64,000 nucleotides of DNA, taken from positions 96,001 through 160,000 of the forward strand of contig CAWHCQ010000004.1 in assembly GCA_963827755.1 (NCBI GenBank), written 5' to 3'. The position numbers and the translations under genes are program-made. Numbering within the stretch: position 1 is the stretch's first letter; the number at the start of each line of letters is the position of its first letter. This document shows positions 52,892 through 61,704 of this stretch, one piece after another. The notes below the pieces were generated by a model that saw nothing but the letters and a program-made list of their open reading frames with translations, was not told the origin of the DNA and did no database searches. The DNA comes from an uncultured Gammaproteobacteria bacterium (GTDB lineage Bacteria; Pseudomonadota; Gammaproteobacteria; UBA9214).

Positions 52892-54076
52892 CTACACGGC
52901 TGAACCTCGATTGCGCGGGCCAAGTCGCAATATCAGATAACCCAGGATCCCGGATGCAAGCGACCCCGCCAGGATGCCGACCCGGTCATCCACGGCAATA
53001 TTCGACCCTCCCTGCTCGAAAGCGAGGGAACCGACGAATAAACTCATCGTAAAACCGATTCCGCAGAGTGATGCCACCCCATACAGCTGGAGCCAGCCCG
53101 CGTCCTGCGGGATTTTTGCAATACCGAGCCTTATTGCCAGCCAGCTGAGGCCGAACACGCCAAGCTGGTTACCAAAAAACAGGCCCGCCGCGATTCCGAG
53201 CGGAACAGGATGCAGCAGGTATTCAAGACTCATCGCCTCAACAGGGATACCGGCATTAGCAAATGCAAACAGCGGCAATATGCCAAACACAACGCTTGGG
53301 TGAAGGTCGTGCTCCAGCCTTTCCAGTTGTGTTTGCGATTCTCCCGGCGCTTTTTTGAAGGGTATAAAAAACGCTGTCAACACGCCTGCCAGTGTCGCGT
53401 GCACGCCCGATTTAAGAACAGACACCCACAGCACCAGTCCAACAAGAATATAGGGCGTCAGCCCCAGTACGTTCCTGCGGTTCAGGATAATCAATACCAT
53501 GACTGCAAATGCGGCGATCGATAAAGAGGCGATGGACAGGTCGGCAGTATAGAAAATTGCAATGATGATAATCGCCCCCAGGTCGTCAATGATCGCCAGT
53601 GTCATCAGGAACAATTTCAACGACTGCGGAATGCGGCTGCCAAGCAGCGCCAGAACACCCAGGGCAAAGGCTATATCCGTGGCCGATGGAATCGCCCAGC
53701 CCTTCAGTGCGACGGGATCTCCCCAGTTGATGTAGGAATAAATCGCCGCAGGAACAGCCATGCCGCCGATGGCTGCGATGATCGGCAGGATTACACGGGA
53801 AGGATCGGATAATTCACCTGCCAGGAACTCACGTTTGACTTCAAGGCCAATCACGAAAAAGAAGATGGCCATCAGCCCGTCGTTGATCCAGAGCAGCAGG
53901 GGTTTGGCAATTTCAAGTGTGCCAATTCTTACTTCAACCGGCGTTCCGAGCAAGGCGTCATAAAGACCTTTTGCAGCAGAGTTTTCAGCCACCATGGCAA
54001 GGATCGCGGCGATAAGCAGCAGCATCCCGCTTGCGGACTCAAGGCGTATGAATTCCTTGAGGGATTTCACAATCAT
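52892..54076 (-). CDS. nhaA: Na+/H+ antiporter NhaA
   Basis: [57 protein letters not shown]. Confidence 0.96.
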
Positions 54077-54209
54077 TGTTACGAAACCGTGTAATGTCGA
54101 TGACAGCAGAATATAACAAGGAATTGCTTTCGGTGCTGCATGCAATCGACCCGGAATGCGCGCCCGGACAGCCATGGACAGGAGGTTCGTATAAAAGGAC
54201 AACCGAGGG

Positions 54210-54547
54210 ATGAATTTCACCGATGAATCATCCGGCGACAAGGCGTTTCTGACGCGGGTACTTGAAGTCAGCATACGCATTGGCGTCGTCCTTCTCCTGG
54301 CAGCCCTGTGCTTCCAGATCGTACGACCCTTCCTGATCCCGGTGCTCTGGGGCATTATCATCGCGGACGCGGTGTCAGGGTTCCCATGCTCGTCATCTTC
54401 GCCGGCTCGATCGGCGGCTTCCTCAGCATGGGAATTATCGGGCTGTTTACGGGGGCGGTTGTGCTGGCGCTCGGTTACAAGTTGTTTCTCGCCTGGCTGC
54501 AGGGGAGTGCCAAGCCGGCGCAGCCGCAGGAAGAAGCGGAAAGCTGA
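54210..54547 (+). pseudogene. AI-2E family transporter remnant with large internal deletion
   Basis: N-terminus (...[13 protein letters not shown]) joined out of frame at ~54365 to the C-terminal [31 protein letters not shown]. Confidence 0.75.
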
Positions 54548-54666
54548 CTGGTACTCGAAGCGTTGCGGGGGTATATTAAAGTATAGATGTCGACCAACTT
54601 CGATTTTTCACGACGCACCCCGGCGTTGGAAAAAGCACTGCCCGCGTCTTGAATTATCATGAATGT

Positions 54667-54698
54667 CTGCTTAACTTAGCAGTGTGTGCTATCACACA
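54667..54698. promoter_or_regulatory. Two abutting palindromes upstream of zorA
   Basis: CTGCT-taactt-AGCAG followed directly by TGTGTG-ctat-CACACA. Confidence 0.4.
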
Positions 54699-54777
54699 GA
54701 TCCGCCATGCGGGCGTTGCTCCAACGTACTGGCTTGGCCAATATCTTCAATGATAACAATGGGTAAGGATAACCGCC

Positions 54778-56943
54778 ATGACACCTACGTCAACAATGTA
54801 TTTCACCCTCATCATTTCCATAATCATCGTAGTGCTGCTGTTCTATTTTCTTAGCAAGCCGACCACAAAAAATGTAGCGACAGCACCGTCCATACTGACC
54901 GGTATCGGTATCTTCGGAACATTTCTGGGTGTTGCCATCGGCTTAATGCATTTTGATGCCAGTGACGTCATAGCGGGGGTGCCGATATTCCTCAGCGGCA
55001 TCAAGCTGGCATTCTGGTCATCGGTCGTCGGTATCGGAGCCTCTTTGATTCACAAGGCCACGTTTACCATTAAACCCCTGCAGGAAGAATATATACAGGA
55101 TGAAATGGGAGTCAGTACCGTGTCGTCCTTGAAGGAAATTACCCAGTCACTGAACAATATCGAAAAGCAGAATGCGAAAGACGGCCTGGGTGAGTTTCTG
55201 CAATCATTTGGCGAGAAGCTGGAGGCCGGTTTATTACCTCCCGCCCGTGAAGAACAAAATTTCATATCGGTTGATGACATTAAAGTGGATGAAGCCGTTC
55301 TGATCGCGTTGCAGAACCTGAAAGAAGAACTGGCCAAAAACTCGGCCGATGAACAGAGCATTATAAAAGACCAGATGCAGCGCTTGCTGGACGAGCTGAA
55401 AGAAGACGCTGTTGCAGGGGGCAGGCAATCGGAAAGTTTACTGGAAGCATTAACGAGCCTGAAAGAAACCAATCAAGCCGAAGATGAAGCCGTGGCACTG
55501 GCGTTGAGTGAGTTGAAAGACGAACTGGCCAAAAACGCGGCAATGCAGTCCGACAGCCTGGTAGACGCGTTGGCGGGCCTCAAAGAAACCAATAAAGCTG
55601 AAGAAGCGGCCACTATCCTTGTATTGAATGAACTGAAAGACGAGCTGGCCAAAAACTCGGCGATGCAGTCCGACAACATGGTAGAAGCGTTGGCGGGCCT
55701 CAAAGAAACCAATAAAGCTGAAGAATCGGCCACTATCCATGTATTGAATGAATTGAAAGACGAGCTGGCCAAAAACTCGGCGATGCAGTCCGACAGCCTG
55801 GTAGACGCGTTGGCGGGCCTTAAAGAGACCAATCGTGCTGAAGATGAAACGGTTGTCGGAGCAGTAAGGGAGTTAAATGAAGAACTGGCCAAAAACTCGG
55901 CAAAGCTGTCAGAAAATATGCTCCAGACATTTGCGGGGCTTAGAGATAGCAACCGGGCTGAAGATGAAGCCATTGTCCTGGCATTGAAGGAGTTGAATGA
56001 TGAGCTGGCCAGGAACTCGGCAAACCTGTCAGAAAATATTCTACAGGCATTCGGGGGTCTGAAAGAAGACATCGGGGCTGGATCGGCAAAGGATCGCGAG
56101 GTATCCAAAGAACAGATGGAAGCCCTGTTTGCCGGGCTGACGAAGGCGGCGGCAAGTACCCTCACCGATTTATCCGACATTGCCGAAAATGCAATTTCCC
56201 AGGCAAAGTGGCAGGCTGCCAACCTGGCCAAGGAACTGTCAACGGCAAATGATACTTCCACCAAGTCGATGATAGCCATGCTCAAGGAAATTCTCGGGGC
56301 CACGGAAGATGCCAACTTTAAAATTACATCCGAACTGGCCAAGCTCAGGGGCGATGTAGCGGCCGACCTCAAGGTCACTACTGATCAGTCCAAGGCGCTG
56401 GCCGAGCAGCTCCATGCAATGACCGAGTCCTACAAGGCATCGCTCATCTCGACAGTAACGGACCTGAAGGCGCAGATATCCAAGGATATGAAGGCCAACT
56501 ATAACCTGATCGACACCTACACCAGGGCCGTGGCGGATGTTACCGGTACTAACCAGGTCGAAGCACTGGAGCGTATGGAGGGGATTGCAAATATCATGCA
56601 AAACGTCGTGCAGTCATCGTCGGACATGTCCACTTTGCTGCATGATAATGCTGCGGCGATGGATCGCATGCAGGAGGCCTTTACCGGTACAAATGAAGGG
56701 TCATTGGGGCGTTTCCTGCTCAACATGAATCAGGACCTGATTGACCATGTCACTTCATTGCAGCATTCACTGGATGCACAGGGCTCCCTCGGTACCTTGA
56801 TGCAGGATATGAACAATGAAACCAATCTCCGCCTGAAAGCAATGGAAAAGGCATTCGAAGGCTCGGTATTCGAAATCAAGCAGTTGCCGCAACAATTCGT
56901 GAAAGGCATGTCCAAGCTCGAGTCGAGCGGCAGGAATATTTAA
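54778..56943 (+). CDS. zorA: ZorA-like protein (MotA/TolQ/ExbB head plus long helical tail)
   Basis: Three TM helices, PSILTGIGIFGTFLGVAIGL..FD, GIKLAFWSSVVG, about 600-aa helical tail; abuts the MotB/OmpA gene. Confidence 0.8.
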   Translation: MTPTSTMYFTLIISIIIVVLLFYFLSKPTTKNVATAPSILTGIGIFGTFLGVAIGLMHFDASDVIAGVPIFLSGIKLAFWSSVVGIGASLIHKATFTIKPLQEEYIQDEMGVSTVSSLKEITQSLNNIEKQNAKDGLGEFLQSFGEKLEAGLLPPAREEQNFISVDDIKVDEAVLIALQNLKEELAKNSADEQSIIKDQMQRLLDELKEDAVAGGRQSESLLEALTSLKETNQAEDEAVALALSELKDELAKNAAMQSDSLVDALAGLKETNKAEEAATILVLNELKDELAKNSAMQSDNMVEALAGLKETNKAEESATIHVLNELKDELAKNSAMQSDSLVDALAGLKETNRAEDETVVGAVRELNEELAKNSAKLSENMLQTFAGLRDSNRAEDEAIVLALKELNDELARNSANLSENILQAFGGLKEDIGAGSAKDREVSKEQMEALFAGLTKAAASTLTDLSDIAENAISQAKWQAANLAKELSTANDTSTKSMIAMLKEILGATEDANFKITSELAKLRGDVAADLKVTTDQSKALAEQLHAMTESYKASLISTVTDLKAQISKDMKANYNLIDTYTRAVADVTGTNQVEALERMEGIANIMQNVVQSSSDMSTLLHDNAAAMDRMQEAFTGTNEGSLGRFLLNMNQDLIDHVTSLQHSLDAQGSLGTLMQDMNNETNLRLKAMEKAFEGSVFEIKQLPQQFVKGMSKLESSGRNI
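55441..56070 (+). repeat. Coding tandem repeat, 120-bp (40-aa) unit, about 5 copies
   Basis: Rows starting 55441/55561/55681/55801/55921 and 55501/55621/55741/55861/55981 align; unit approximately ALAGLKETNKAEE.A....LNELKDELAKNSAMQSDSLVD. Confidence 0.9.
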
Positions 56944-57909
56944 ATGTCTACACTGGTGGCAGGAAAAAACAGGCCCCCTGCAGGACAGGGAGACGATGAC
57001 TGGATCTCGGTCAGTGACTTGATGAGTGCACTGATGATGATATTTTTGTTGCTGGCCGTGTTTTACATGATGTACCTGGACGAGGCGAATAAACTGCAGA
57101 GAATTGATGATGAGGACTATATTGCCAAAACAGTCGGCCTGGAAACCAAGCTGGCGAGTGTTGAATCAAGGGTAGCCGAGCAGGCAAGGCTTTTACTCGA
57201 GCTCGACAGTAAAAATGCTGAAAAGGATAAACTTCTTTCAGAAGCGACCAATCAACTGGCGTTAATTCAAAAAGACAATGAATTAAAGCTCAGTAAATTC
57301 GATGCGGTGATCTCTGAAGCCGTGATTTATGAGGATGTTATCAAGGAGCTGCGTCAGAGCCTGCTAGGGGAGTTCAGTCAGGATCTGGATAAATGGAATG
57401 CTGAATTGCGTGATGACCTGACATTCAGATTTAATGAACCAAGGACCTTGTTTACTATTGGTGATGCGACACTCAGACCCAGGTTCAAGCGTATTCTGGA
57501 TGATTTCTTCCCGCGTTATCTCAAGGTCATTACCTCTGATCAATTCCGTAACGATATCGCTGAGGTACGTATCGAAGGTCACACCTCCAGCGTCTGGGGT
57601 GACTTGCCGCCCTATGGCCAGGAGGCCTATTTCAAGAATATGGAACTGTCACAGAACAGGTCGAGAAACACCCTCTATTATGTCACCGCGCTGCCGGAGG
57701 CAGAGCGCCATGCCGAATGGCTGAAATCAAAGTTAACAGCGAATGGCCTGTCGTCCTCAAAGCTCGTCGACAAAAACGGGTATTTTATAACCGACCACCG
57801 AAGTGATGGCGTCGAAAGCCTGAGAAATTCCCAACGCTCTGAATTCAGGGTAAGGATTGACGCAGAGTCAAAAATCACCAAGATCATTGATTCGGGGAAA
57901 ACTCAATAG
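56944..57909 (+). CDS. zorB: ZorB-like MotB/OmpA protein
   Basis: WISVSDLMSALMMIFLL (TM Asp), FFPRY, RIEGHTSS, NMELSQNRSR, ANGLSSSK. Confidence 0.82.
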   Translation: MSTLVAGKNRPPAGQGDDDWISVSDLMSALMMIFLLLAVFYMMYLDEANKLQRIDDEDYIAKTVGLETKLASVESRVAEQARLLLELDSKNAEKDKLLSEATNQLALIQKDNELKLSKFDAVISEAVIYEDVIKELRQSLLGEFSQDLDKWNAELRDDLTFRFNEPRTLFTIGDATLRPRFKRILDDFFPRYLKVITSDQFRNDIAEVRIEGHTSSVWGDLPPYGQEAYFKNMELSQNRSRNTLYYVTALPEAERHAEWLKSKLTANGLSSSKLVDKNGYFITDHRSDGVESLRNSQRSEFRVRIDAESKITKIIDSGKTQ

Positions 57910-58246: not shown

Positions 58247-58426
58247 ATGCAGATCTACAAGGATATATTCCGCGGTATGCTTGCCGGCCTGCTCGCGACC
58301 TGCCTTCTTTCCCTGCTGACGCTGAGCAGCGGCCTGGTCCCGCAATTTGACCTTGTAACCCTCTCCGGGCACCTGGTCTATGGCCTGGCACCGGGGGTTA
58401 TCTACCGCTGGCTGGCTCCGCGATAA
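58247..58426 (+). pseudogene. Short membrane-protein remnant (probably internally deleted)
   Basis: AAGGA RBS; GMLAGLLAT... and ...HLVYG look like the first and last helices of a multi-TM family, but the ORF is only 59 aa. Confidence 0.4.
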
Positions 58427-58431
58427 CAGTC

Positions 58432-59283
58432 ATGGATTTTCGTGATGCTCCGGAACGAATGCAATGCATGGAGGTCTGGGGCGGCAACCAGGGTGTTGAG
58501 CGAAGTTTCCAGACCGCCGGGCTGGACATCAGGGTATACAGTCGTCCGTATGGACAGGCCGCTTGCGGTGGTGATGTCTACTATCTTTCCTCCTGCGCCT
58601 CGGGACGTATTACGCGAATGCTGCTTGCCGATGTAAGCGGCCACGGTGAGGTGGTATCGCAGCTGGCTGGAGGCTTGCGCGACCTCATGCGGCGAAACAT
58701 CAATTTCGTAAAACAGGACCGTTTTGTGAGGGCGATGAATCTGCAGTTTACGGAATATGCAGATAAAGGTTGTTTTGCGACGACACTCGTCAGTACATTT
58801 TTCGCACCTACAAGGAGTTTTACCCTCTGCAACGCAGGACACCCGCCGCCACTGGTGTTTCGACAGGTCGACTCACAATGGTCGGAATTAACGCGCGAGC
58901 TGGAAGAAACAAATGAGGTGACGGATATACCGTTTGGAATCATGAATGAAGTCTGTTACAGCCACAATGAGCTGCGACTCCGGCCGGGTGACATGGTGCT
59001 TAGCTACAGTGACGCCATAATAGAGTCTACAGGCGCAGATGGTCGGCAACTTCACCAGGAGGGTGTACTGGATCTGGTTCGTGAACTCGACCTGCAAGAG
59101 CCTGAAAAGATCATTCCGGCGCTGGTTGAAAGTATCACGGGTTTATCAAATGATAACCTCAAGCAGGATGATGTAACGATTATGTTATGCCAGGCGACCG
59201 GTGGTGGCCCTGTGCTCAAAAACAGCCTGCTTGCGCCGTTCCGGATTTTCGGCAAGGTAACGGATCAAACGAAGATTGGCTGA
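58432..59283 (+). CDS. Stand-alone PP2C/SpoIIE Ser/Thr phosphatase
   Basis: GGDVY, LADVSGHG, NAGHPPP, YSDA, DDVT. Confidence 0.9.
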   Translation: MDFRDAPERMQCMEVWGGNQGVERSFQTAGLDIRVYSRPYGQAACGGDVYYLSSCASGRITRMLLADVSGHGEVVSQLAGGLRDLMRRNINFVKQDRFVRAMNLQFTEYADKGCFATTLVSTFFAPTRSFTLCNAGHPPPLVFRQVDSQWSELTRELEETNEVTDIPFGIMNEVCYSHNELRLRPGDMVLSYSDAIIESTGADGRQLHQEGVLDLVRELDLQEPEKIIPALVESITGLSNDNLKQDDVTIMLCQATGGGPVLKNSLLAPFRIFGKVTDQTKIG

Positions 59284-60368: not shown

Positions 60369-61595
60369 CTAGTACAGATAGTTCGCGTTGTTCAGGAATC
60401 GCGTAATCACGTCGGAATACACCGGCACCAGGTGGTAGGCCGGTTCAGCCCCTGTGCCGTTCCTGTCGAGCAGGCACTGGTGGTAGAGACGTTCCAGCAG
60501 CAGCCAGCTTTCCTCGCGGCTGCAACGAAATACGGCGCGATGGTCATCGACGCTCAGCTGGCCGTGTGCCGCCACCTCGGCAAGGGTAAACAGTTCCTCG
60601 CTGATCAGCTGCTTGAGCAGGCTGAAGTCCAGTTCGACAAGGGGCTGTATATCCCACAGCTTGTGTTCATCGATCACGAGGGAGCCAAGCAAATAGAAAA
60701 ATGCAAAATCCGGTTTGCCGTTACTGAGTCTGTGGAGTGTGGTCAATTGACGTGCAAGCGCGGGCAGGCTCTGCGGGTGATCAGTCGACGTTCCGGTGTC
60801 CGGCGTGATGCCGGATGCCTGCAGGCGTGCCGTCAGGCACTGCCCGAGTTCGGCCTCGCTGAACAGGGGCAGCTCGATTTGCCCGGAGAAAAAGCGGTCG
60901 GCACGGTAGACATAGGCCAGGCGACGCCAGGCGTATTGCTCGCAGCCCAGCACCCAGAAATGGCGTTGCTGGGTCGCGACCATGACGGCACCGAAAACAC
61001 GTATCGCCTCGTTGGCCCCCATGATACGGCAGGCCAGGAAGTGGCCGTTATCGATCGCAATGATGCTCGGTGTCATGCCGTTGAGGTATTCAAGCAGTTG
61101 CTCAACCGAATCAACCGGCTGCTCGCAGCCGACGATTGCGCAGAGTTGCGCCAGGGTATCGTTGATGTCATATGGCCGGTGTGTCAGCTCGCCGTAACGC
61201 CAGGCTTCATGGTCACCGACTTGTGTGGCCAGTTGCTGCAGGAAAGTAGTGATGCCACTGCCCTGGGGGCCGGTGACGGCGACCATGGAGCCGTGCCCGG
61301 TGCGCCACGTGCCGAGTGCTGCCAGCAACCGGTCTGACTGTTGCTTGCGTTCGACAAGACGTGCGTCACCTGCTGCCAGCGGTTCGACCGGGAAGGCCTG
61401 CAGCAGTGCTTGCGGCAACGCCATGTCCGCGTAGCGTTGCGCCCGGCGCACGGCCTGGGCAAGGCACAGGTCGATGTTCACCCTGATCGATTCGGCAGGC
61501 TCGTCCGGCCGGCCTCCGAGAAGCCGGAATACCCATCGAGACAGGCGGGAGAATGGTGCAGAAGCCAGGAAAGTTGTTTGCGTGGTATTTTTCAT
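60369..61595 (-). CDS. P-loop/AAA-like NTPase of unknown function
   Basis: Walker A-like GPQGSGITT (no Lys), IIAIDN Walker B-like; 9 bp upstream of mscS. Confidence 0.65.
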   Translation of the reverse strand: MKNTTQTTFLASAPFSRLSRWVFRLLGGRPDEPAESIRVNIDLCLAQAVRRAQRYADMALPQALLQAFPVEPLAAGDARLVERKQQSDRLLAALGTWRTGHGSMVAVTGPQGSGITTFLQQLATQVGDHEAWRYGELTHRPYDINDTLAQLCAIVGCEQPVDSVEQLLEYLNGMTPSIIAIDNGHFLACRIMGANEAIRVFGAVMVATQQRHFWVLGCEQYAWRRLAYVYRADRFFSGQIELPLFSEAELGQCLTARLQASGITPDTGTSTDHPQSLPALARQLTTLHRLSNGKPDFAFFYLLGSLVIDEHKLWDIQPLVELDFSLLKQLISEELFTLAEVAAHGQLSVDDHRAVFRCSREESWLLLERLYHQCLLDRNGTGAEPAYHLVPVYSDVITRFLNNANYLY

Positions 61596-61704
61596 CTTCT
61601 GCCTGATGATCGCATTATCCCGGCGACAGTGCCAACACGGCAATGCTGAAGCAGAATACCGGCGGGAAACGAAGGAGCGAACCCGCGAGCCGGTAACTCA
61701 TTGA

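Follow-up and report, generated by a model that had tools for sequence, protein, structure and literature searches.

A two-gene ZorAB-like cassette with a predicted ZorB stalk and no recognisable effector in an uncultured gammaproteobacterium

In a 64,000-nucleotide stretch of the genome of an uncultured Gammaproteobacteria bacterium of the UBA9214 lineage (contig CAWHCQ010000004.1, positions 96,001 to 160,000; hereafter the window, in which all positions below are counted) we found two intact, abutting genes on the + strand, encoding a ZorA-like protein of 721 aa (54778-56943) and a ZorB-like protein of 321 aa (56944-57909), the start codon of the latter following directly on the stop codon of the former. 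Among the readings that a first-pass annotation of this DNA had put forward, the evidence favours an undescribed effector-less or co-opted motor. The pair probably constitutes a functional motor of the ZorAB type, acquired horizontally and belonging to a distinct clade related to type II Zorya, with no effector in cis, a stalked wall anchor and a unique tail tip, and with envelope surveillance as its putative role. In current Zorya models ZorAB is a latent sensor whose linkerless anchor stays off the peptidoglycan, and defence needs ZorC/D or ZorE. The lineage described here departs from either expectation, having a long anchor stalk that varies in heptads and no recognisable effector. It lends itself to the question of whether such a motor can work alone or needs a further partner.

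The adjacency of ZorA- and ZorB-like genes, already remarked on in the first-pass annotation, was borne out by PADLOC, which assigned zorA to ZorA2 (PDLC00637, E 6.3e-23, the match being confined to N-terminal residues 11-129) and zorB to ZorB2 (PDLC00641, E 7.5e-78, 259.5 bits). ZorA2 and ZorB2 were also the top NCBIfam models for the pair, zorB scoring 166 bits against ZorB2 and 30 bits against flagellar MotB, for which the equivalog cut-off is 277; all NCBIfam scores of the pair lie below the equivalog cut-offs, as do those of a canonical type II control locus (L013). Since NCBIfam ranks ZorA2/ZorB2 first and MotB far lower, we consider the pair Zorya-like, and the models did not place it in a generic, non-Zorya MotA/MotB family. 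In Pfam, ZorA matched no family above the cut-off, ZorB gave a sub-threshold OmpA match (22.8 bits versus a cut-off of 27.2), neither MotA_ExbB nor MotB_plug matched the pair, and no flagellar family was present among the 46 larger open reading frames (ORFs) of the window that were scanned. Of the 33 ZorA relatives (425-791 aa) found at E<=1e-10, 21 carry PF28082 ('ZorA-like_t1') as a precomputed assignment.

Profiles built from the clade described below matched solved structures of the Protein Data Bank (PDB): ZorB matched 8vvi_A (E 3.4e-68), and ZorA matched 8vvi_F (E 1.7e-20) and 8qyd_A (E 2.2e-13). According to PMC11890865, 8VVI is the type II ZorAB of Sulfuricurvum kujiense. The pair resembles type II Zorya in that the aspartate-bearing membrane helix and the wall-binding domain of ZorB both align, in the short three-helix core of ZorA with no large loop between the first two transmembrane helices and with a helical tail, and in the order of zorA followed by a tightly coupled zorB. 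Base composition sets it apart from its surroundings, as the first reading had noticed: guanine-cytosine (GC) content is 0.45-0.54 along the pair and 0.55-0.62 in the flanks, and the whole-pair value of 0.492 compares with a genome mean of 0.5745 (sd 0.034 in 3.1-kb segments), a value as low being found in 99 of 5405 such segments, the lowest 1.8%. The window thus holds an AT-rich, intact ZorAB-like pair.

We then looked for the effectors on which Zorya systems depend. No HNH nuclease and no superfamily 2 (SF2) helicase was detected by Pfam among the 46 larger ORFs of the window, in agreement with the first-pass annotation. The search was extended with models of ZorC, ZorD, ZorE, ZorF and ZorG to the whole genome (2.85 Mb, 52 contigs, 91.8% complete), and no ZorC, ZorE, ZorF or ZorG was found. 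For ZorE, PDLC00645 had no match in the genome, and PDLC00642 gave one motif-only match (E 1.9e-5), a 119-aa stand-alone HNH protein encoded beside an ABC-2 transporter; a custom hidden Markov model (HMM) trained on ZorE ORFs from 65 loci retrieved only that same ORF, at 27 bits, among 23,912 stop-to-stop ORFs. The ZorC models PF15611 (EH signature) and PDLC00625 matched neither this genome nor any control genome, PF11828 (DUF3348) for ZorF had no match in a search that lacked a positive control, and PF11445 (DUF2894) for ZorG had none. ZorD (PDLC00632) produced a single 25-bit generic helicase match, with a model that also matches 11 of 14 control genomes. The cassette therefore differs from type II Zorya in having no zorE in cis or detectable in the genome, from type I in the lack of any ZorC found and in a ZorD match that is weak and generic, and from type III in that zorF and zorG were not found in the genome. 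Effectors encoded elsewhere, as the first-pass annotation suggested, are still conceivable, although these searches gave no known one beyond the generic ZorD match, and an unrelated partner is a candidate. A second genome of the same genus (G012, 97% complete), which carries the pair at locus L012, gave no ZorE with the one ZorE model applied to it, only two motif-only HNH matches.

To place the pair in an evolutionary frame, we collected its relatives. Searches with ZorB returned 3474 relatives at E<=1e-10, of which the first 34 (P0001-P0034; E<=3.8e-90, at least 54% identical) were taken as the clade, the next relative standing at 3.7e-65. The clade comprises about 33 sequence clusters, with one member labelled Psychromonas sp. 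In a FastTree phylogeny of 129 ZorB rows, the window protein falls in a 35-row group with a Shimodaira-Hasegawa-like support of 100 and a stem of 0.63, and many ZorE-linked type II ZorB proteins are found elsewhere in the tree; because the tree is unrooted, loss of zorE on the clade stem is the parsimonious reading and is not demonstrated. Equal longest-contig sizes suggest that at least 10 of the ZorA relatives lie on the same contig as a clade ZorB.

Both genes are under purifying selection. With the window paired with L012 (ZorB 72% identical, zorA 723 aa, zorB 321 aa; dS, the synonymous rate, ~1.1-1.3), the ratio of nonsynonymous to synonymous rates (dN/dS) was 0.19 for zorA and 0.165 for zorB, falling to 0.07 in the wall-binding domain and 0.14-0.15 in the ZorA tail tip. 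Nucleotide homology between the window and L012 is restricted to 54646-57909, that is, to a 132-bp leader and the two genes, and ends at the zorB stop codon. The leader (54646-54777, + strand), identified by its homology to L012, has a promoter-like element and a Shine-Dalgarno sequence, and its blocks are conserved in the window, L012 and L018; the element is a putative promoter that a consensus scan did not list. As homology is limited to the leader, zorA and zorB, we regard the two-gene cassette as a unit that is selected and transferred.

These data bear on whether the pair is a decayed Zorya, as the first-pass annotation had proposed among its options. An internally deleted gene just upstream of the cassette (see below) is what a locus in decay might show, and ZorE is required in the type II systems studied, according to PMC11890865. 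However, both ORFs are intact, dN/dS is 0.17-0.19 at dS >1, the leader and two-gene unit is conserved in another species at a different locus with 72% ZorB identity, the clade has a derived and conserved stalk and tail tip of its own, and contigs matching the cassette are present in RNA libraries. A decaying type II Zorya that has recently lost zorE is thus ruled against by its intact ORFs, purifying selection and conserved clade, none of the three readable clade loci having zorE, and we consider it highly improbable.

Downstream DNA of the clade was read in three loci, namely the window, L012 and a metagenomic locus (L014, ZorB 62% identical). No zorE follows zorB in any of the three, so the close homologues for which this could be read do not retain the effector gene, and the three downstream kilobases share neither a common ORF of at least 25 aa nor nucleotide similarity. 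In L012 the upstream order is an HDOD-GGDEF gene, a thiamine pyrophosphate enzyme and a Na_H_Exchanger, and downstream lie small ORFs without a family match; in L014 a CitMHS transporter gene, convergent with zorB, comes next, and then two genes for DEAD-box RNA helicases. The window itself is ordinary chromosome, with genes for topoisomerase IV, elongation factor P, Mla, a resistance-nodulation-division pump, cyclic di-GMP (c-di-GMP) enzymes and ferrochelatase.

The ZorB proteins of the clade share their functional ends with solved ZorB and differ in what lies between. All 32 sequences in the alignment share the D25 motif without change, and it pairs with the corresponding motif in 8vvi_A; residues Y229, N232, L235, S236 and R239 of the OmpA-type peptidoglycan-binding motif are invariant in the clade, and the wall-binding domain matches domain 2 of 8vvi_A at 200.8 bits. 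The profile alignment to that chain is split, positions 10-57 pairing with residues 6-53 and positions 183-374 with residues 49-239, which leaves about 125 clade profile positions without a counterpart in 8vvi_A. In the window protein the corresponding segment is a predicted periplasmic helical stalk, absent from solved ZorB (57085-57318, + strand, residues 48-125), and the AlphaFold2 (AF2) model (predicted local distance difference test, pLDDT, 72.8) has helices at 23-86, 91-124 and 129-151 before the wall-binding domain.

The length of this segment was assessed from the spacing, in residues, between the aspartate motif and a conserved motif of the wall-binding domain. The spacing is 127 residues here, 70 above the canonical value of 57, which 61 of 75 ZorB2 loci share, as do 57 of 70 non-clade proteins. 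Four of the 34 clade proteins lack one of the two motifs; in the other 30 the spacing is 99-358 residues (median 177.5), corresponding to an insert, or excess over 57, of 42-301 residues. Taken modulo 7, the insert leaves 0 (n=18), 3 (n=9) or 4 (n=3) in 30/30 proteins and never 1, 2, 5 or 6, a count that, the proteins being kin, does not represent 30 independent trials. A continuous coiled coil tolerates whole heptads, or whole heptads plus 3 or 4 residues, and the long clade ZorB proteins have a strong 7-residue hydrophobic periodicity. From the heptad-restricted insert lengths we infer that the insert may form a dimeric, rigid coiled coil by which the helix between membrane segment and anchor is lengthened. 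At a helix rise of ~0.148 nm per residue such a stalk, if straight, would measure ~10.4 nm here (70 residues) and 6-45 nm across the clade. A two-copy structure prediction of residues 20-152 scored 0.12 against a mark of 0.42 and counts neither way. Inserts of +7 and +14 residues also occur in ZorE-linked ZorB (L025, L053, L054 and L095), so the stalk is not in itself tied to zorE loss. The clade profile also matches ATP synthase b subunits (E ~5e-5, profile positions 18-150), in which an N-terminal membrane helix likewise runs into a long helical stalk; we take this as a structural analogy only, the similarity being weak, probably compositional and without functional relation.

ZorA combines a conserved motor core with a tail peculiar to the clade. 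Residues 1-100, the membrane core, are conserved in the clade and contain three transmembrane helices within residues 3-98 (AF2 helices 3-26, 30-57 and 64-98), forming the MotA/ExbB-like three-helix core to which the ZorA2 and 8vvi_F matches belong. The tail of 620 residues is all-helical in the AF2 model (residues 109-720, no strand), which is of low confidence (pLDDT 57.6; predicted template modelling score, pTM, 0.23). Across the clade, residues 100-430 make up a middle part of variable length, and in the window it includes tandem repeats of 120 bp, or 40 aa (55457-56066, + strand), for which Tandem Repeats Finder (TRF) reported a period of 120 with 2.8-3.3 copies at 84-91% match and a period of 240 with 2.4 copies over 55457-56023. 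The C-terminal part, residues 431-721 (56068-56940, + strand), is a conserved, clade-specific tail tip with many invariant columns. In an exhaustive phmmer search of 1.84 billion representatives it retrieved seven proteins at E<=0.001, each of which also reaches E<=1e-30, and the match formed the C-terminal end of every full-length hit (451-1063 aa). The tail has no significant BLASTP similarity to the tail of canonical type II ZorA, only the hairpin of the second and third transmembrane helices being alignable.

The cassette is thus unlike type II Zorya in two further respects, since its ZorB carries a 70-residue helical insert where the canonical spacing has no linker, and its ZorA tail is dissimilar in sequence, with 40-aa tandem repeats and a clade-specific tip. 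With flagellar MotAB/PomAB it shares an ion-driven motor, an OmpA-like wall anchor and a spacer between membrane helix and anchor, whereas ZorA has three helices and a tail in place of four helices and a torque loop. The MotB linker is flexible, whereas the spacer here is a heptad-quantised helix. To type I Zorya (ZorABCD; E. coli ZorAB, 8QYD) it is linked by a long ZorA tail, with a total of ~700 residues, by the profile matches to ZorA (E 2.2e-13) and the ZorB N-terminus, and by what is presumed here to be the same wall-binding, ion-driven 5:2 motor architecture; unlike type I, its ZorA is without ~100 extra N-terminal residues, and its long stalk contrasts with the linkerless E. coli ZorB (PMC11946911). 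A full-text literature search (PMC12505986 among the papers, supplementary tables lying outside its scope) found no effector-less ZorAB lineage, stalked ZorB or 'Zorya IV' in the text it covered. Of other sources, the PADLOC paper (PMC8565338) mentions orphan genes in general terms, and 10.1101/2024.04.05.588314 describes a V. cholerae type I zorABC that is truncated, an unrelated case.

How might such a motor work? In E. coli the ZorB anchor is fused to the membrane helix 'without a linker', the distance from inner membrane to peptidoglycan is ~90 Å, and ZorAB has been proposed to fire once a perturbed envelope lets the anchor reach the wall, as described by Hu et al. (PMC11946911). By analogy, the ZorA and ZorB of the window would form a rotary unit of 5:2 stoichiometry, as in the solved ZorAB structures, and the ZorB coiled coil would add whole heptads (70 residues, ~10 nm) between membrane segment and wall-binding domain. 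Such a stalk could let the anchor reach the cell wall without prior envelope collapse, and with ~10 nm the anchor would therefore reach the wall at rest, unlike in the distance-sensing model for canonical ZorB; the clade stalks offer natural length variants for that model. Ion flow would then turn ZorA and its tail, and the output could be delivered via the conserved clade-specific tail tip, either to a partner encoded elsewhere and unrelated to ZorC/D/E/F/G or to the membrane potential itself. The role would most likely be envelope surveillance against phage, judging by homology to Zorya. A bolder version, which we hold to be doubtful, is a self-sufficient, nuclease-free machine in which a heptad 'ruler' would keep the motor in lasting contact with the wall at a fixed distance and the output would come from the motor itself, either as leakage of protons or sodium or as rotation of the tail, which would act on a host structure through the tail tip. 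If true, its mode of operation would depart from that of Zorya I and II, where a sensor recruits a nuclease, and it might not serve immunity at all.

The distribution of the cassette points to horizontal acquisition. Of 54 genomes of the order, two, among them the window's own, have a clade-level ZorB match; none was found in 399 other genomes scored from the class (best E 4.9e-52) or 400 from the phylum, these sets being samples and not whole groups. In a metagenome scan limited to 80 of 555 relatives, two belonged to the clade; a scan of viral contigs gave nine loci, none above 50% identity, and of 14 records from plasmids none reached 60%. It is the low GC content, the patchy distribution and the different flanks that together lead us to this view.

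We also searched environmental data. Sequence words of the cassette occur in sediment metagenomes of nine studies and in four metatranscriptome runs of one study. Contigs from the RNA libraries (X13 and X15) match zorA/zorB with 0-5 differences over 150-375 bases (97-100% identity); one spans the zorA/zorB junction (56722-56972), and another is without exactly one 120-bp zorA repeat unit (55566-55687). These contigs would fit a transcribed cassette whose repeat number is polymorphic in natural populations. Cover by the RNA libraries was missing from parts of the 6.6-kb stretch. DNA contigs from X1 bridge both cassette junctions; because X1 may be the source sample, they do not constitute independent support.

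A non-immune alternative is that a ZorAB-derived stator has been co-opted to maintain the envelope or ion homeostasis, or for some other energised task in the periplasm, and carries no effector because it would require none. The three clade contexts are housekeeping in character (transporters, c-di-GMP enzymes, RNA helicases), a cation or anion transporter stands beside each cassette (NhaA, Na_H_Exchanger and CitMHS), ZorE-less lineages beside formamidase genes (L040, L055, L060 and L082) look vertically inherited, and the geometry of a permanent anchor is closer to an engaged stator than to a latent sensor. However, the cassette is patchy, being found in 2/54 genomes of the order and in none of the ~800 others sampled, its GC content is foreign to the genome, its flanks differ in all three loci, and repeat copy number changes fast in both proteins. 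Such patchiness, foreign composition and variability of flanks and repeats suggest accessory, conflict-driven rather than core genes, and we therefore regard the co-opted stator as possible but unlikely.

Several considerations weigh against the interpretation that we favour, a functional ZorAB motor for envelope surveillance with no effector in cis. In the type II Zorya that has been studied, deleting any component, ZorE included, abolishes protection, according to PMC11890865. The ZorC, ZorF and EH_Signature searches matched nothing anywhere and so had no positive control, and with the genome 91.8% complete an effector may lie in unassembled sequence. The effector-free context was read at three clade loci, with ~30 more in the clade, some of them on contigs of 24-110 kb, and all three contexts are housekeeping neighbourhoods and not defence islands. 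As regards the stalk, in the AF2 model of the ZorB monomer the helix is interrupted at residues 87-90, which leaves room for a folded-back hairpin instead of a straight rod, and straight stalks of up to ~45 nm would exceed an ordinary periplasm. The RNA-library contigs are not proof of transcription, as DNA carry-over is possible. The defence role, the assembly, the ion flow and the geometry of the stalk are all, at present, inferred.

The genes around the cassette were examined next, since the first-pass annotation had described two of them, nhaA and a PP2C phosphatase gene, as remnants and had raised a link between ZorAB and its PP2C, MscS, NTPase or NhaA neighbours. Both supposed remnants proved to be full length. 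The nhaA Na+/H+ antiporter gene (52892-54079, - strand) lies outside the cassette and matches positions 2-374 of 374 of PF06965 (E 4.7e-149), and 33 of 37 genomes of the genus have an nhaA homologue at E<=1e-60, the closest 73-84% identical; in G012 the nhaA-type gene and zorAB lie on separate contigs, and the nhaA regions of six relatives have nothing in common on the zorAB side, ferrochelatase being ~4 kb away in three of the six. A cation/proton antiporter stands directly upstream of the pair in both genus genomes, from different families (NhaA at 52892-54079 and Na_H_Exchanger at L012:4156-5445), which may be coincidence or a hint to the coupling ion.

The only remnant found is a scar between nhaA and the leader (54210-54547, + strand), consisting of two out-of-frame membrane-protein fragments of 52 and 54 aa that alone have no match in Pfam. 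The N-terminal piece (54210-54365) is 32% identical to L131:8505-9500, a PF01594 AI-2E_transport ORF in a relative, and the C-terminal piece (54383-54547) has no family match; as a whole it looks like an internally deleted AI-2E-type transporter, a deletion scar beside the cassette. On the other side, a GC-rich spacer of 522 bp with no homology to L012 (57910-58431, + strand) includes an ORF for a 59-aa hydrophobic membrane protein (58247-58426) that resembles the C-terminal end of DUF6789 (E 8.7e-5, below the cut-off) and could be either what is left of a gene or a small protein of the membrane.

Beyond the spacer lies the PP2C/SpoIIE-type phosphatase gene (58432-59283, + strand; SpoIIE positions 5-190 of 192). 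A new effector module composed of ZorAB and one of its present neighbours would fit several properties of this gene, which begins 522 bp downstream of zorB on the same strand, has a GC content (0.526) below the genome mean and below that of the MscS and NTPase genes, and has homologues in just 3 of 37 genus genomes (G000, G011 and G012), both zorAB carriers among them. The contexts of the three copies are, however, all different: in G011 and G012 only the ORF itself is homologous, amid different flanks, the G012 copy lies off the zorAB contig, G011 (81% complete) has PP2C without a ZorB match, and L014 has no PP2C in 5.5 kb downstream. The 424-aa P-loop NTPase gene (60369-61643; weak AAA_16 and nSTAND_NTPase5 matches) occurs in 5 of 37 genus genomes, including three without a clade ZorB match (G013, G015 and G427), and G012 has a fragment only. 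The NTPase and PP2C genes are accessory, and neither tracks the cassette; with nhaA-type homologues in nearly all genus genomes and off the zorAB contig in G012, the proposed link to PP2C, the NTPase or NhaA is not supported, and a module with a present neighbour is improbable.

Lastly, we surveyed ZorB2-like loci in general, fetching 98, of which 75 had at least 1 kb downstream of zorB. Using the custom ZorE HMM, which may miss very divergent ZorE, and contigs that are short, we found ZorE in 53 of the 75, usually overlapping the zorB stop codon, and no ZorE in 22, two clade loci included. In 55 ORFs from 16 ZorE-less loci PADLOC detected no ZorC/D/E/F/G, and in 8 of the 16 a ZorA2-type gene lies beside zorB. 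Effector-less ZorAB pairs may thus be an overlooked class, missed by detectors that need a complete gene set. Several of the ZorE-less loci fall into lineages of their own. One such lineage, a soil ZorB group of 11 rows (support 99), has eight rows without ZorE; four of its loci (L040, L055, L060 and L082) have a formamidase/acetamidase gene nearby, with ZorA2-type confirmed only in L082, and this recurrence suggests that ZorB2 loci without an effector are passed on vertically in a soil taxon. At L039:737-2167 and L088:811-2244 a molybdopterin oxidoreductase-domain protein of 476-477 aa is encoded on the same strand, 93-115 bp after zorB, with no ZorE. L099:2052-3543 has a short-tailed ZorA (331 aa) and a ZorB (226 aa), followed by two same-strand ORFs of 241 and 252 aa that are possible alternative partners; the first has no Pfam or PADLOC match, and the second runs to the end of the locus. 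In L105:60-1902 the order is reversed, a ZorA2-like ORF (330 aa) lying downstream of an insert-bearing ZorB (294 aa) on the same strand. Finally, a 283-aa insert-bearing ZorB without ZorE (L021:10832-11527) adjoins a TraI-like/LPD7 protein and is probably on a conjugative element.

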